Origin: a virus | Taxonomy: Duplodnaviria; Heunggongvirae; Uroviricota; Caudoviricetes | Strand: one strand, 5' to 3' | IMG/VR virus record: IMGVR_UViG_2698536408_000010 | DNA: 5,852 nucleotides | Shown here: in pieces, positions 1 through 5,852 of the stretch | How positions within the stretch are numbered: position 1 is the first letter of the stretch | Layout of the letters: each line of letters begins with the position of its first letter | Notes under the pieces: model-generated | The model's database searches: none | What the model was told of the DNA's origin: nothing | Seen by the model: only the letters and a program-made list of their open reading frames with translations | Program-made: the position numbers and the translations under genes

Positions 1-2
1 TC

Positions 3-417
3 CAGTATCCGGATGGTAAGCCGCCGGTATGGGCAAAGTGTACGAAAGGTGTGTATCCGTCTTACTGGGAAGAATGGAAAAAAGTCAGGGAGGTGGTAAA
101 AGTTGCCTGTCCGGAGTGTGGCGGAAAGGGTGAGGTTTCCACCGCCTGTAAGGATTGCCGTGGGCGTGGTGTCGCCATTCATCGTGAAGAGTCGGTAAAA
201 CGTGGTATGCCTGTTATCAGAGACTGCCAGCGTTGTGGTGGTCGTGGCTATGAAAGACTACCATCAACGGAGGCATTTAATGCTATATGCGAGGTGACAA
301 ACCAGATAACACGCGCGTCATGGGAAAAAACAGTTAAGAAATTCTATGATGCGCTGGTGACTCGGTTTGATATTGAAGAAGCATGGGCTGAGCGGCAGTT
401 AAAAAAGGTAACTAGGT
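3..417 (+). CDS. Cys-rich zinc-finger protein with three CxxCxGxG (DnaJ-type) motifs; partial (open at window start, 3' end lost in N run); positional candidate for lambdoid late antiterminator Q
   Basis: The frame is open from nt 3 with no upstream stop, so the ORF is 5'-truncated. Translation contains ACPECGGKG, CKDCRGRG and CQRCGGRG. It is followed by an intrinsic terminator, then a methyltransferase and a tRNA-Ile/tRNA-Arg cluster, as downstream of Q in Stx-type phages. The tail after the N run (GRFMPDVRR...) reads through the terminator and is not counted. Confidence 0.5.
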
Positions 418-459
418 NNNNNNNNNNNNNNNNNNNNNNNNNNNNNNNNNNNNNNNNNN
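418..459. other. Assembly gap or masked bases (42 N)
   Basis: Run of n characters; hides the 3' end of the first ORF and any promoter immediately downstream. Confidence 0.95.
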
Positions 460-497
460 ATGGGCGTTTTATGCCTGACGTTAGAAGAGTTTCTACA

Positions 498-520
498 ACC
501 CGCCGCCGAGCGGGTTTTTT
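498..520 (+). terminator. Rho-independent terminator (stem acccgc/gcgggt, 6-nt loop, T6 tract)
   Basis: Perfect 6-bp GC-rich stem 498-503/510-515 followed by tttttt (515-520). Confidence 0.7.
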
Positions 521-640
521 ATGACTGAAATCGCGTCAGTACAGTAAACGCGCTGGTGGCGGTGAATACCTGTCTTTCAGCTTGCTGGCTTTTTCGACAA
601 GAGTTATTGGTGTGTCACGTTAACCGGAAAAGGAAAAGAC

Positions 641-838
641 ATGCTAAAACAGCAGGATATGACAGAAACCGCCAGAGTGGTGTTTAATGAATTAAGCGTT
701 ACCGAACCGGCGACAGTCGGGGAGATAGCGCAGAATACTTACCTTTCACGCGAACGCTGCCAGTTAATACTGACCCAGCTGGTTATGGCGGGTCTGGCAG
801 ACTATCAGTTCGGTTGTTACAGACGCCTTCCGCAGTGA
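641..838 (+). CDS. Small (65 aa) hypothetical protein with predicted helix-turn-helix-like segment
   Basis: ATG at 641 preceded by aaggaaaag (SD-like) 6 nt upstream; segment ATVGEIAQNTYLSRERCQLILTQLVMAGL resembles an HTH/winged-helix; stop codon lies inside a terminator hairpin. Confidence 0.6.
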   Translation: MLKQQDMTETARVVFNELSVTEPATVGEIAQNTYLSRERCQLILTQLVMAGLADYQFGCYRRLPQ

Positions 839-848
839 AGGCTTTTTT
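825..848 (+). terminator. Rho-independent terminator overlapping the stop codon of the 65-aa ORF
   Basis: Stem gccttc (825-830) / gaaggc (837-842), loop cgcagt, followed by tttttt (843-848). Confidence 0.65.
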
Positions 849-865
849 ATTTGTGGTAAATGGGC

Positions 866-896
866 GGCTGGTGGGTGTTAGGGGCACCCACCAGCC
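866..896 (+). other. Perfect 12-bp GC-rich stem-loop without U tract
   Basis: ggctggtgggtg (866-877) pairs with cacccaccagcc (885-896), 7-nt loop ttagggg; no T run on either strand. Confidence 0.5.
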
Positions 897-988
897 ATCT
901 GCTCATGCGTTGGGTTCACAAGCAAACCTCAGGCCCACTGCTTTGCGCAAAAGCAGAATGAGCCTATCAGAGACAGGCTTAATGATCC

Positions 989-2047
989 ATGCTTAATACT
1001 GTAAAAATATCCAGTTGTGAGTTAATCAACGCCGACTGCCTGGAATTTATCCGGTCGTTACCCGAAAATTCTGTTGACCTGATAGTCACGGACCCGCCGT
1101 ACTTTAAAGTGAAGCCTGAGGGCTGGGATAACCAGTGGAAGGGCGACGATGATTACCTGAAGTGGCTGGACCAGTGTCTGGCGCAGTTCTGGCGGGTGCT
1201 GAAACCTGCCGGAAGTCTTTACCTGTTCTGTGGTCATCGCCTGGCATCTGATATCGAAATCATGATGCGTGAACGCTTCAGTGTGCTGAACCATATTATC
1301 TGGGCGAAGCCGTCCGGACGCTGGAACGGATGCAACAAGGAAAGCCTGCGGGCGTATTTCCCCGCCACAGAGCGCATTCTGTTCGCGGAACATTATCAGG
1401 GGCCGTATCGTCCGAAAGATGCCGGGTATGCGGCGAAGGGCAGTGCACTGAAACAGCATGTGATGGCCCCGCTGATTTCTTACTTTCGTGATGCGCGAGC
1501 TGCCCTGGGGATAACGGCAAAACAGATTGCAGATGCCACAGGAAAGAAAAACATGGTGTCGCACTGGTTCAGTGCCGGTCAGTGGCAGTTGCCGAATGAA
1601 AGCGATTATCTGAAATTACAGGCGCTGTTTGCCCGGGTGGCAGAAGAGAAGCATCGGCGTGGTGAACTGGAAAAGCTCCACCACCAGCTGGTGGATACGT
1701 ATACCTCACTGAACCGGCAGTATGCGGAGCTGCTGAGTGAATATAAACATCTGCGGCGGTATTTTGGCGTGACGGTGCAGGTGCCGTATACCGATGTGTG
1801 GACGCATAAACCGGTGCAGTTCTATCCCGGGAAACATCCGTGCGAAAAACCGGCAGAAATGCTGCAGCAGATAATCAGCGCTAGCAGTCGTCCGGGTGAC
1901 CTGATTGCAGATTTTTTCATGGGGTTGGGTTCGACAGTGAAAGCGGCACTGGCGCTCGGGCGTCGTGCAATTGGCGTTGAGCTGGAGACTGAACGTTTTG
2001 AGCAGACGGTTCGGGAAGTACAGGATTTAGTCAGCCAGAACGGATGA
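989..2047 (+). CDS. Beta-class (motif IV before motif I) N6-adenine DNA methyltransferase, CcrM/HinfI-like, apparently orphan
   Basis: DPPY motif at aa 35-38 (nt 1091-1102) after NADCLEF...LPENSVDLIVTDPPY; C-terminal HPCEKPAEMLQQIISASSRPGDLIADFFMGLGST (HPxxKP plus FxGxG AdoMet motif I). 352-aa ORF. Start codon uncertain (weak SD before ATG 989). No restriction endonuclease gene nearby. Confidence 0.85.
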   Translation: MLNTVKISSCELINADCLEFIRSLPENSVDLIVTDPPYFKVKPEGWDNQWKGDDDYLKWLDQCLAQFWRVLKPAGSLYLFCGHRLASDIEIMMRERFSVLNHIIWAKPSGRWNGCNKESLRAYFPATERILFAEHYQGPYRPKDAGYAAKGSALKQHVMAPLISYFRDARAALGITAKQIADATGKKNMVSHWFSAGQWQLPNESDYLKLQALFARVAEEKHRRGELEKLHHQLVDTYTSLNRQYAELLSEYKHLRRYFGVTVQVPYTDVWTHKPVQFYPGKHPCEKPAEMLQQIISASSRPGDLIADFFMGLGSTVKAALALGRRAIGVELETERFEQTVREVQDLVSQNG

Positions 2048-2087: not shown

Positions 2088-2163
2088 GGCCCTTTAGCTC
2101 AGTGGTGAGAGCGAGCGACTCATAATCGCCAGGTCGCTGGTTCAAATCCAGCAAGGGCCACCA
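2088..2163 (+). tRNA. ileZ: tRNA-Ile2 (anticodon CAU, lysidine type; ileX/ileZ-like), 76 nt with encoded CCA
   Basis: Cloverleaf: acceptor GGCCCTT/AAGGGCC, D-arm GCTC..GAGC, anticodon loop CTCATAA, T-loop TTCAAAT, 3' ACCA. Close to E. coli ileX as recalled from memory. Met versus Ile2 cannot be distinguished from the anticodon alone. Confidence 0.85.
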
Positions 2164-2263: not shown

Positions 2264-2340
2264 GCGTTGTTAGCTCAGCCGGACAGAGCAATTGCCTTCT
2301 AAGCAATCGGTCACTGGTTCGAATCCAGTACAACGCGCCA
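2264..2340 (+). tRNA. tRNA-Arg (anticodon UCU, reads AGA/AGG), 77 nt with encoded CCA
   Basis: Acceptor GCGTTGT/ACAACGC, D-arm GCTC..GAGC, anticodon stem ATTGC/GCAAT with loop CTTCTAA, T-loop TTCGAAT, discriminator G then CCA. Confidence 0.88.
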
Positions 2341-2354
2341 CACTTATTTTCCCT

Positions 2355-2380
2355 GGCTCGCTTTTGCGGGCCTTTTTTTT
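2355..2380 (+). terminator. Rho-independent terminator after the tRNA pair
   Basis: Stem ggctcgc/gcgggcc (one G-U), tttt loop, followed by T8 (2373-2380). Confidence 0.7.
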
Positions 2381-2827: not shown

Positions 2828-3646
2828 TTAAGCAGCCATCTGATGATATTTTTCCCTGAAGGCTGCCGGGGAGATATTCCCCAGACGAGAGTGACGACGC
2901 TGACGATTGTAGAAAATCTCAATGTATTCCCGTATTACTGAGATGGCTTCATCCCGGTTATTAAAACGATAGTGGCTCAGGCTCTCATTTTTCAGCGTTC
3001 CCCAGAAGCTTTCCATCGGAGCGTTGTCGTAACAGTTACCTTTACGCGACATTGATGTTTTCAGACCAGACTGCTCCTGTATGACCCGGTAATCGTATGC
3101 GCAGTACTGTGAACCTCGATCAGAGTGGTGGATTAGCCCGGCAGGTGGGCGCTGGCTCCTGAGCGCCATAAACAGGGCTTTACCTGTCAGCTCTTTTGTC
3201 ATGCGCTCTCCCATGGCGTAGCCGACAATTTCGCACGTATAAACATCTTTGATGCCAGCGAGGTACAACCATCCCTCCTGTGTGGCAACATACGTCAGGT
3301 CCGCCACCCAGACCTGATTTGGTGCTGTAGGAGCGAACGTCTGGTTCAGCAGATTTGGCGCAACTGGCAGATTGTGGTTCGAGTTCGTAGTCGCTCTGAA
3401 CTTGCGTTTCTGCTTACAGCGTAGCCTTAGCTCCTTACGAAGACGTGCCAGTCGGTCACGACCAACGATGATGCCATTCTCTGCCAGCTCCGTCTGGAGC
3501 CGCCGGGTTCCATATGTTTCGCGAGTGCGGATATGTGCCACCTTAATCTCCAGTTTTAGCCGCTCATCACTTTGTTTTCTGTCTGAGGGTTCATGCTGTA
3601 CCCAGTTGTAATAACCGCTCCTGGATACACCAAATACCTGACACAT
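2828..3646 (-). CDS. IS3-family transposase OrfB (DDE integrase catalytic domain); in vivo made as OrfAB by -1 frameshift
   Basis: 272-aa ORF with HHSDRGSQY, MSRKGNCYDNAPMESFW and YNRQRRHSRLGNISP motifs typical of IS3-family OrfB. The frame stays open upstream to the slippery site near 3727-3733. Confidence 0.9.
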   Translation of the reverse strand: MCQVFGVSRSGYYNWVQHEPSDRKQSDERLKLEIKVAHIRTRETYGTRRLQTELAENGIIVGRDRLARLRKELRLRCKQKRKFRATTNSNHNLPVAPNLLNQTFAPTAPNQVWVADLTYVATQEGWLYLAGIKDVYTCEIVGYAMGERMTKELTGKALFMALRSQRPPAGLIHHSDRGSQYCAYDYRVIQEQSGLKTSMSRKGNCYDNAPMESFWGTLKNESLSHYRFNNRDEAISVIREYIEIFYNRQRRHSRLGNISPAAFREKYHQMAA

Positions 3647-3912: not shown

Positions 3913-3923
3913 NNNNNNNNNNN
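3913..3923. other. Assembly gap or masked bases (11 N)
   Basis: Run of n; IS sequence on one side, tRNA-flanking sequence on the other, so true adjacency is unknown. Confidence 0.95.
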
Positions 3924-3929
3924 GCTCCC

Positions 3930-4005
3930 GGCCCTTTAGCTCAGTGGTGAGAGCGAGCGACTCATAATCGCCAGGTCGCTGGTTCAAATCCAGCAAGGGC
4001 CACCA
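3930..4005 (+). tRNA. ileZ: tRNA-Ile2 (CAU), second copy, identical to 2088-2163
   Basis: Same 76-nt sequence as copy 1, including 6 nt of upstream flank (gctccc). Confidence 0.85.
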
Positions 4006-4105
4006 TCACAAACCGCCATTAGCTTATCAGGAAGAGCAGACGACACGATAACAGGGTTGTTGGTGCGGGGGCGGGTCCCCGATGGCGGTCCATTATCGGT
4101 ATTCA

Positions 4106-4182
4106 GCGTTGTTAGCTCAGCCGGACAGAGCAATTGCCTTCTAAGCAATCGGTCACTGGTTCGAATCCAGTACAGCGCGCCA
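4106..4182 (+). tRNA. tRNA-Arg (UCU), second copy, one substitution in acceptor stem
   Basis: Identical to 2264-2340 except A to G at 4175 (versus 2333), making a U4-G69 wobble; downstream flank differs and has no terminator. Confidence 0.85.
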
Positions 4183-4835: not shown

Positions 4836-5060
4836 AATTTTTAAATACTTCACAATTCAGGCGGTTGACTGTTGTCTGGTTTGCGGGGAGTTTGTTAAAA
4901 GAAACTGGCATGGTGAATCCCCCTGTGCGGAGGGGCAATCAGCGAGTAGGTATATGGGATAATCGCGGATTCAGGTGCTGGTACTGAATTCACCGGGAGG
5001 CACCCGGCACCATGCAATGGCACATAGCGCCACTCTCCAGCCCCTCTCCGGAGGGGCTGT
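4836..5060 (+). repeat. R2: ~220-bp structured noncoding module, copy 2 (near-identical to 2376-2598)
   Basis: Same module as R1 with TTGACT in place of TTGACA and one extra C in the terminal hairpin (7-bp stem gcccctc/gaggggc, 5040-5057). Confidence 0.75.
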
Positions 5061-5076
5061 TTATATTGATTTTGTC
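5040..5076 (+). terminator. Terminator-like hairpin at the end of R2
   Basis: 7-bp GC stem with tccg loop followed by tgtttatattgattttg (T-rich but interrupted). Confidence 0.5.
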
Positions 5077-5090
5077 AGATGTGAGTAAAC

Positions 5091-5124
5091 TCCTTATGGA
5101 CTTTGTTGTTTTAGTCCATAAGGA
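5091..5124. other. Perfect 12-bp inverted repeat spanning the stop codon of the minus-strand 111-aa ORF
   Basis: tccttatggact (5091-5102) pairs with agtccataagga (5113-5124), 10-nt loop. It lies between the convergent R2 module and the minus-strand ORF. Confidence 0.5.
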
Positions 5125-5429
5125 CATATTTGCAGAGTGCAACGGTTATTAAAGCATTCATTCAATACGTTATCTGTATTTGTAGGGCATTCCTGGCTAT
5201 TTTTGATTGAATTCCAGAATGTTTTATTGAATGGTACTACGTTGTAAATGGTTACAGGTAGCACTTTGTTATTGAGCATGATGCCTGTGTGAGTCAGTGT
5301 AAATATACTTTCAGGAGGTAAGAAAGCATCCGATTGATACCAGATTATTAATTTTATTTTACTCCATATGACTGAAAAAGATATTCCGCATGATGGCTGG
5401 ATAACTGTATCAATCACAATCCACTTCAT
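5094..5429 (-). CDS. Hypothetical Cys-containing protein (111 aa), AT-rich cargo gene
   Basis: ATG at 5429 (minus) preceded by aaggaaa 5 nt upstream (strong SD). At least six ATA Ile codons. C-terminal region has 5 Cys ([26 protein letters not shown]). No family recognised. Confidence 0.6.
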
Positions 5430-5689: not shown

Positions 5690-5816
5690 ATGGCATTTAA
5701 ACACTATGATGTTGTCAGGGCGGCGCCGCCGTCAGATCTTGCGGAAAAGCTGACACATAAACTGAAAGAGGGCTGGCAGCCGTTTGGTAGTCCGGTGGCC
5801 ATAACCCCTTATACCC
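5690..5816 (+). CDS. N-terminal 42 codons of a small lambdoid-prophage protein (MAFKHYDVVRAAPPSDLAEKL..., possibly DUF1737-like), interrupted by IS end
   Basis: ATG 5690 with ggtggaaag SD-like sequence 6 nt upstream. The frame runs without a stop into the IS terminal sequence starting at 5817. The family assignment is from memory and tentative. Confidence 0.55.
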
Positions 5817-5852
5817 TGAGGTGTACTGGCAATAGCGGACACTACCATTTGT
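5817..5852 (-). mobile_element. IS3-family terminal end (second copy of the end seen at 2785-2820), continues beyond window
   Basis: 36 nt identical to 2785-2820 (tgaggtgtactggcaatagcggacactaccatttgt), same orientation. Confidence 0.8.

Follow-up and report, generated by a model that had tools for sequence, protein, structure and literature searches.

How a temperate phage can carry an enzyme that would otherwise poison its host is the question raised by a segment of IMG/VR virus record IMGVR_UViG_2698536408_000010, a stretch of 5,852 nucleotides from a virus of the Caudoviricetes (the whole of which is hereafter called the window). Positions 641 to 2,047 of the window hold a small open reading frame (ORF), a terminator-like hairpin (H1), what appears to be a conserved structured leader RNA, and a gene for a β-class N6-adenine methyltransferase of the M.EcoGII family. 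We consider it probable that these elements, together with the terminators ahead of them, make up a cassette of the late operon that serves anti-restriction and is switched off at two levels, by the terminators and by a translational leader, following a logic that resembles com-mom of phage Mu. A more specific proposal, namely that the leader represents an undescribed class of cis-regulatory RNA dedicated to M.EcoGII-family methyltransferases and forms, with the winged-helix (wH) protein encoded by the small ORF, a Com/mom-like gate on translation by means of which temperate phages can harbour an otherwise host-poisoning enzyme, is put forward with somewhat less than even confidence. An initial annotation had reported a small gene, a terminator (825-848), a hairpin and a methyltransferase gene within 641-2047, and had suggested that the two genes could form a controller-plus-methylase module; all four features are present (small ORF 641-838, terminator 825-852, hairpin 866-896, methyltransferase gene 989-2047), so that the observation is confirmed, whereas support for the interpretation is partial. 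As an enzyme, the methyltransferase is ordinary and has been explained before, its family and likely specificity being known, and the small protein is already known as a hypothetical protein; what appears to be new is the conserved regulatory architecture, above all the leader RNA, and these control elements appear to be the part worth following.

The initial annotation had described a terminator followed by a 12-bp perfect hairpin. Both are present, but the inverted repeat (866-877/885-896; loop of 7 nt) does not stand by itself; comparison of homologues identifies it as helix H2 of a predicted conserved leader RNA of about 135 nt, the structure of which is supported by covariation. In the predicted fold, helix P1 (861-865/933-937) closes a three-way junction that also includes H2 and helix Y (898-907/917-926), which has a 2x2 internal loop; 3' of the junction follow hairpin D (938-944/950-956) and hairpin E (960-965/975-980), and the leader ends at the AUG of the methyltransferase gene (989). 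In a MAFFT alignment of 31 diverse sequences (A7), 79.8% of cells were paired, compared to at most 42% when the partners were slid by 1-3 columns; 19 of the 37 pairs showed changes on both sides, a number reached by none of 500 shuffles, and further pair types numbered 44 against 36.4 expected (1/500 shuffles). A model-fitted alignment of 56 distinct sequences (A9) gave 86.8% paired cells and compensatory changes in 25/37 pairs; A9 leans towards the model, and the case is rested on A7 and A9 together. One pair of helix Y (A7 columns 48/72) occurs as CG in 12 sequences, AU in 4, UA in 4 and UG in 3, and H2 has been swapped wholesale in several lineages with pairing retained. Many G-U pairs fit the + strand only, and all full matches of the covariance model built from the alignment (R1) are on the + strand. 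R1 matched the window at 857-991 with 123.5 bits and yielded a single + strand match per locus, ending at the start codon, in 64 of the 68 sources searched; one of the remaining sources is a spurious locus, and the others are taken up below. Nucleotide identity of the leader to that of the window was 0.74-0.82 in loci where the synonymous sites of the neighbouring gene are saturated, and the window leader had a folding z-score of -4.5. With regard to previous descriptions, Rfam 15 offered no family for the leader, either over the whole window or, at permissive thresholds, over positions 520-1010; the sole match at this place was to P26, a - strand match due to the GC hairpin that scored 24.2 bits, below the threshold of 36. 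A full-text search for the hairpin sequence and for WP_000917767 returned unrelated papers only, and the leader is not mentioned in two papers on small RNAs (sRNAs) of enterohaemorrhagic Escherichia coli (EHEC) (PMC7547250, PMC4104026). On the basis of Rfam 15 and this limited full-text search, we provisionally regard the leader RNA as undescribed.

The start codon at the 3' end of this fold lacks a recognizable Shine-Dalgarno (SD) sequence: a match of at least 4 nt to the AGGAGG core at normal spacing before the methyltransferase AUG was found in 0/33 diverse homologues, two of which have AGGT about 15 nt upstream of the AUG. The predicted median probability of being unpaired over positions -15 to +4 was 0.38 in the same 33 homologues. 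An SD-less AUG at the 3' end of a folded leader would provide a lock on translation, with the leader limiting or gating initiation. Two coding candidates in the spacer were rejected; a conserved peptide from an ORF at 860-961 was dismissed by eye, one-base indels in the loops breaking the frame between homologues, and a conserved upstream ORF starting from the AUG at 958 was dismissed, this codon being GUG, UGG, AGG or ACG in other lineages. A pairing of AUGGGC with GCUCAU, part of the RNAalifold consensus, was likewise dropped as the main fold, because two-sided changes favour helix Y and P1; it has been kept as a possible alternative conformation. A GATC (Dam site) at 984-987, directly before the methyltransferase ATG, lies inside a TGATC motif that is kept in most enterobacterial homologues; its conservation may simply reflect pairing with GGUCA further upstream.

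The same features could be read in another way, with the leader acting as a ligand-sensing riboswitch (e.g., for S-adenosylmethionine [SAM] or S-adenosylhomocysteine) or as a two-fold switch in which AUGGGC pairs with either the proximal GCUCAU or a distal GCCCA. The highly conserved unpaired stretches of the three-way junction and the position in front of a SAM-dependent enzyme are consistent with such a role, as is the existence of two mutually exclusive pairings that both show about 96% or more compatibility across the 31 sequences. We nevertheless judge it very unlikely, as no Rfam riboswitch class matched, the terminator-like hairpin lies 5' of the fold and not 3' of it, and the proximal pairing shows one-sided changes only.

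Control of the methyltransferase would be needed if the enzyme behaves as its relatives do. Its ORF matches PF01555 (N6_N4_Mtase) with E=7.9e-42 over amino acids (aa) 29-340, and this fold contains motif IV (DPPY, aa 35-38, nt 1091-1102), a target-recognition domain (TRD), the sequence HPCEKP (aa 283-288) and motif I (FMGLG, of the form FxGxG, aa 310-314). The motif order, IV then I, therefore places the enzyme in the β class, to which its relatives in the PDB (RsrI, CcrM and MboIIA) also belong. The view of the initial annotation that this is an orphan β-class N6-adenine methyltransferase carried by a prophage is borne out by the PF01555 match, by the motif order and by the ORF list, which includes no nuclease ORF in the window; in the related phages examined, no nuclease was linked to the gene as a methyltransferase partner. 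Its neighbours in the window are the Q gene, tRNAs, STnc100 sRNAs and a transposase of the insertion sequence (IS) family IS3, and PADLOC returned only generic type II methyltransferase matches.

The initial annotation had further given the target specificity as unknown. This no longer holds, because the enzyme is nearly identical to the characterised M.EcoGII and thus most likely has no target specificity, methylating adenine in any context. The two proteins share 324 of 349 residues with 2 gaps over the full length including the TRD, the M.EcoGII sequence being taken from the SUPREM paper (PMC11551740 Table S1) and machine-read from the PDF with a few reading errors, so that the true identity is about 93-94%. 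Amino acid identity to the enzyme of phage 1720a-02 is 94.6%, and Murray et al. named the latter very similar to M.EcoGII (PMC5778455). M.EcoGII and M.EcoGI, its sister, show no context preference in methylating adenine, an activity that in this family extends to DNA, ssDNA and RNA; they are unexpressed in the lysogen and slow growth when expressed constitutively; overcoming host restriction is the role that has been proposed for them (PMC5778455). M.EcoGII and those of its reconstructed ancestral variants that were assayed stay largely non-sequence-specific, the ancestors being far more diverged than the window copy (PMC11551740). The window enzyme resembles M.EcoGII and M.EcoGI from the prophage of E. 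coli O104:H4 C227-11 in its β-class motif order, its length of about 350 aa, its 93% identity including the TRD, and its prophage-borne, nuclease-free setting; unlike M.EcoGII, it differs at approximately 25 residues, several within the TRD and linker, and has Leu in place of Ser in motif I. By its similarity to these enzymes, it would modify adenines in any context and could thereby shield new phage DNA from many restriction systems. Such an enzyme would, however, require control, as it would harm the cell and as heavy methylation would also impair the function of DNA. The initial annotation had also proposed that failure to find a methylated motif attributable to the gene would refute its interpretation; this would mislead, since the homologue is silent in lysogens and has no motif even when active.

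A lock on transcription is suggested by the position of the cassette. To judge from its sequence, the window corresponds to the beginning of the late region in a lambdoid, Stx-type (Shiga toxin) prophage, in which the wH gene, the leader and the methyltransferase gene appear to form the first cassette of the late operon, directly behind Q, PR' and tR'. The order Q, terminator, small ORF, terminator, methyltransferase, tRNAs is likewise annotated in phiP27, in 1720a-02 and in a 97.7%-identical E. coli O121 prophage (L001), where the counterpart of Q is labelled 'antitermination protein'. At the place of the masked stretch of the window, L001 has TTGATT-N17-TAAATT followed by AACGATGGGCG, which we take to be a PR'-type late promoter with a lambda-like pause element; a sigma-70 consensus scan did not flag this position in L001 (8/12 matches). 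With PR' read from L001, the cassette lies downstream of Q, PR' and tR' on the strand of the late genes. The stem of tR' is conserved among phiP27, 1720a-02 and Stx2c phages, and its loop varies. Segment 460-2090 was matched in 3137 of 5426 complete E. coli genomes, with at least 80% of the segment covered in 2007, as well as in 254 phage records, mainly of Stx-converting phages.

The second terminator-like element, H1, consists of a 6-bp stem (825-842) with four G-C pairs and a loop of 6, followed by TTTTTTATTT. As a class, terminator-like matches in positions 1-2500 are not above chance (4 found versus 2.7+/-1.7 expected). A GC-rich hairpin with a T-rich tail is present directly 5' of the leader in almost all of 36 diverse loci, with a stem sequence that differs between lineages; its T tract is strong in some lineages, that of the window among them, and weak elsewhere. 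The methyltransferase gene would have at least two intrinsic terminators ahead of it, tR' (497-522) and H1 (825-852). PR' is constitutive, yet transcription stops at tR' unless Q acts (PMC7547250). The position of the gene and the published silence of its homologue suggest that only Q-modified polymerase would pass these terminators, during lytic growth, leaving the gene silent in the lysogen; transcription by Q-modified polymerase only would fit both the reported silence of M.EcoGII in lysogens and the logic of PR' and tR'. The arrangement agrees with the late operon of the lambda type (Q, PR', tR', 6S RNA / StxS; PMC7547250) in having a Q gene, a late promoter region, a short terminated transcript and late genes with further terminators, and with Stx phages in that tRNA and moron genes come after; it departs from the lambda type in that the PR'-tR' transcript is short and in that the methyltransferase module occupies the place of stx after tR'. 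Positions 460-522 would give a short PR'-tR' transcript of the 6S/StxS type, which differs in sequence from the StxS region of Stx phages.

The third element of the cassette, the small ORF, is a real coding gene under purifying selection. It has its own ribosome binding site, AGGA, 6 nt before the ATG, as the initial annotation had stated, and comparison with phiP27 gave a synonymous divergence (pS) of 0.20 and a non-synonymous divergence (pN) of 0; against other genera, pS was 0.6-0.88, with synonymous sites saturated, and pN was 0.08-0.18, which counters the possibility, allowed for in the initial annotation, that the ORF is untranslated. AlphaFold2 modelled the 65-aa product as a wH protein (H-H-H-E-E) with a pLDDT of 90.6. 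Foldseek matched the model to wH domains of the MarR/IclR/TtgV type, N-terminal domains of O-methyltransferases and SelB at template modelling (TM) scores of 0.6-0.83 with weak E-values, the MarR/IclR/TtgV-type matches having TM scores of 0.7-0.83. Matches in Pfam were all sub-threshold (TrmB with E=0.0026, MarR_2 and HTH_24) and included no HTH_3/XRE at E<=1; NCBIfam had no model for the protein. The protein belongs to phrog_331 (E=1.4e-37), which PHROGs lists with function unknown, and its 334 homologue clusters are all from Enterobacterales prophages. The helix-turn-helix (HTH)-like gene of the initial annotation is accordingly an HTH-type gene in that it encodes a wH protein, and one linked to the methyltransferase across genera, but it is not of the XRE type. 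The DpnI domain is a wH that reads N6-methyladenine (m6A) (PMC11037411). With regard to the idea that the small protein might be such an m6A reader, DpnI was not among the 50 Foldseek matches listed for it. In phiP27 (L002, 2702-3931), a gene of the GIY-YIG nuclease family lies between Q and the small wH gene; this gene is absent from the window. Fusions of wH and GIY-YIG domains are known m6A-dependent nucleases.

A synteny set of one-genome-per-species contigs spanned more than 10 genera, among them Escherichia, Salmonella, Kluyvera, Klebsiella, Citrobacter, Buttiauxella, Enterobacter, Mixta, Erwinia and Plesiomonas. Of its 28 genuine loci, 27 have the methyltransferase gene after the small ORF, nearly always with a spacer of 147-154 nt. 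The exception (L025) retains the small ORF and the spacer, has the methyltransferase gene replaced and looks like a deletion. Diverged metagenome clades still have recognisably related small proteins upstream of diverged methyltransferases (L115, L118, L123, L129), and the wH gene is an ancient partner of the cassette. Upstream of it, the core of a conserved non-coding block at 581-618 is invariant in 21 loci from more than 10 genera. RNAalifold found no consensus structure in this block, which contains no palindrome either; a sigma-70 consensus scan found no promoter in 517-988, the block lacking a good -10 element. The block may be an unusual promoter or a protein-binding site, either role being putative.

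A gene of this kind beside a methyltransferase gene recalls the controller (C) proteins of restriction-modification (R-M) systems, and the small protein could on that account bind operators and set transcription of the methyltransferase for anti-restriction or epigenetic control. Its fold is of a DNA-binding type, its gene is almost always directly upstream of the methyltransferase gene, as in R-M systems where a gene for a small DNA-binding-type protein adjoins that for the methyltransferase, and a conserved non-coding block precedes it. However, C proteins act as dimers of an XRE-type HTH protein of about 70-100 aa, recognising C-boxes and timing the expression of a nuclease, and the comparison fails on these three defining features: the fold is a wH with sub-threshold TrmB/MarR-type matches, no palindromic C-box was found (positions 520-640 contain no inverted repeat, and the conserved upstream block is not palindromic), and no nuclease gene is present. 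In addition, the two genes have a terminator-like hairpin and an RNA structure of 135 nt between them, and methyltransferase gene and leader persist without the small gene in four loci. Control of this sort is unlikely in our view. Of the controller-plus-methylase module proposed in the initial annotation, the anti-restriction purpose is supported, being the role that the literature proposes for the near-identical relative (PMC5778455), and the R-M type of controller is not.

The small ORF might alternatively be an independent moron, with its own promoter and terminator, that is expressed by the lysogen for an unrelated purpose and hitch-hikes beside the methyltransferase gene. Morons are known to insert in the region downstream of PR' (PMC4104026), and a promoter-like conserved block, the gene's own AGGA and its own terminator-like hairpin would all suit such a gene. 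We give this explanation little credence; linkage with near-constant spacing has been kept over more than 10 genera as flanking genes and Q types change, diverged small proteins still accompany diverged methyltransferases (L115, L118, L123, L129), and the small gene was found without the methyltransferase in one locus only, the apparent deletion L025.

Our favoured guess for the role of the wH protein, drawn by analogy, is that it may act as a regulator on the leader or on its DNA, as Com does on the leader of Mu mom. Com is a small protein that binds the leader of mom mRNA and so activates translation of a harmful anti-restriction modification enzyme, and Com homologues are also found upstream of non-specific adenine methyltransferases in Mu-like prophages (FluMu/Pnm1) (PMC6483171, PMC3299994). 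The two systems share a harmful, broad anti-restriction modifier expected late, a gene for a small nucleic-acid-binding protein upstream of it, and, by prediction, a structured mRNA leader at the start site. They differ in that the small protein here is a wH protein without a Cys4 motif and not a zinc finger, in that a terminator-like hairpin lies between the genes, in that the leader fold is unrelated and much larger, and in that the methyltransferase is of the β class and neither of the α class nor Mom. In one diverged metagenome locus (L129), a 38-aa four-Cys zinc-ribbon ORF (1062-1178) stands ahead of the methyltransferase gene, and the leader runs up to the start codon of this small ORF, an arrangement that recalls Mu Com; the ORF matched the Pfam Com family (PF10122) with E=0.28, below the cut-off.

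In its strictest form the analogy would have the wH protein bind the leader RNA and open or close the structure round the AUG, as a translational activator or as a lock. That a small protein gene, a structured leader and an SD-less gene for a harmful enzyme have stayed together over the range from E. coli to Plesiomonas, as well as in diverged clades from metagenomes, speaks for this, as do the position of Com homologues ahead of other non-specific adenine methyltransferases and the four-Cys zinc-ribbon ORF between leader and methyltransferase gene in L129; moreover, some winged helices bind RNA, and the wH of SelB is among the fold matches. The wH protein is, however, unrelated to Com, the L129 ORF matches Pfam Com at E=0.28 only, and the small gene lies 5' of a terminator, versus the overlapping operon of com-mom. 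We thus regard direct binding of the leader by the wH protein as possible but rather doubtful.

Several observations weigh against the proposal of a late-expressed cassette that is locked at both transcription and translation. The leader and the methyltransferase gene occur without the wH gene in four loci (L139, L168, L172, L186), and the leader was not found by R1 in three diverged methyltransferase loci (L117, L119, L167). The alternative AUGGGC-GCUCAU (proximal) pairing, though it shows one-sided changes only, is 96% compatible with the sequences and excludes helix Y, such that the fold may not be unique, and the leader could instead be a processing site, a sensor of a ligand or protein, or a trans-acting RNA. 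The dependence of the methyltransferase on Q is one that we infer from position only; the weak T tract of H1 in many lineages makes some Q-independent read-through into the leader possible, and the small ORF might have a promoter in the conserved block at 581-618. The M.EcoGII sequence used for comparison contains a few machine-reading errors, and the window copy, with its Ser313Leu replacement, may do nothing.

This replacement lies in motif I, which reads FFMGLGST in the window (nt 1913-1936, with the Leu313 codon at 1925-1927) compared to FFMGSGST in the family consensus. Of 190 homologous loci taken from genomes, viral contigs and metagenomes, 189 show Ser at position 313, and the F-x-G-x-G pattern is retained despite the change of this near-invariant residue to Leu. 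The Leu313 allele is shared only with IMG/VR contig L034, the methyltransferase of which is 100% identical in protein, and the exact 61-nt segment round codon 313 was found in no complete E. coli genome (best match 98.4%). Ser313Leu may, on this comparison, be an inactivating private mutation, and with a change in the SAM-binding motif and a location in an IS-disrupted, duplicated region this copy may be partly or wholly inactive. A decaying, non-functional remnant is a serious possibility, although we lean against it. It would account for a residue other than the Ser kept by 189/190 loci, for the absence of the exact 61-nt segment from complete E. coli genomes, and for a window in which N gaps, an IS3-family transposase and duplicates of the tRNA and STnc100 blocks occur; by contrast, the methyltransferase ORF is complete from end to end, neither the leader nor the small ORF is broken, and the related contig L034 has the same Leu allele.

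As a reagent, M.EcoGII is in wide use for chromatin footprinting, MadID and RNA methylation tools. Descriptions of how it is controlled in nature have so far gone no further than "silent in the lysogen". The three-part cassette (wH gene, terminator-like hairpin and SD-less structured leader), which occurs in more than half of complete E. coli genomes, suggests how a phage affords such an enzyme. If the leader or the small protein gates translation, the Mu com-mom strategy would have a second, independent example in this cassette, which could also be reused to tame toxic methyltransferases in expression systems.

Table 1. Positions of the features at the start of the late region (numbering of the window)
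Feature	Position	Strand	Basis or remark
Q antiterminator gene, 3' part	1..416	+	PF03589 Antiterm, E=6.5e-32; 5' end cut at window edge, 3' end runs into masked N stretch
Masked N stretch	418..459	+	Holds late promoter PR' in close relatives
Short PR' transcript body and tR' intrinsic terminator (predicted)	460..524	+	Stem 497-516 and T run to 522; terminator scan
Conserved block upstream of small ORF	581..618	+	CTTGCTG-N14-AGAGTTAY-N2-TGTRTGTCA
Stand-alone wH protein gene, 65 aa	641..838	+	ORF; AGGA at 631-634
H1 terminator-like hairpin and T run	825..852	+	Overlaps stop codon of small ORF; terminator scan
Conserved structured leader RNA (predicted)	857..988	+	Covariance model, pair counts
M.EcoGII-family β-class N6-adenine methyltransferase gene, 352 aa	989..2047	+	ORF, PF01555, identity
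Late-operon tRNA genes	2088..2163 (CAT), 2264..2340 (Arg-TCT); span to 2372	+	Bound the cassette downstream
Terminator after tRNA genes	2355-2372	+	Terminator scan

Downstream of the cassette (Table 1), ARAGORN identified the tRNA genes at 2088-2163 and 3930-4005 as tRNA-Met (CAT). Related records annotate tRNA-Ile and tRNA-Arg in this block, the CAT tRNAs being given as tRNA-Ile (ileZ), i.e., with a CAT anticodon of the lysidine type. The tRNA block is present twice (2080-2340 and 3922-4182), as are STnc100, with Rfam matches at 2417-2606 and 4879-5068 (124 and 132 bits), and a 47-49-nt sequence that resembles an IS end (2779-2827 and 5806-5852). An IS3-family transposase gene on the - strand (2828-3646), with an upstream orfA fragment, lies between the duplicated blocks, and a run of N covers 3913-3925; two prophage late regions seem to be combined in the window, as a rearranged or scaffolded mosaic. 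The STnc100 copies fall in the moron region in which convergent anti-sRNA genes of EHEC prophages have been described. Finally, a 111-aa ORF on the - strand at 5094-5429 (MKWIVIDTV...) resembles a 116-aa ORF on the - strand of L025 (4640-4990, MKWTVIDTI...) and probably represents the conserved hypothetical phage ORF found next to the site of morons and sRNAs.

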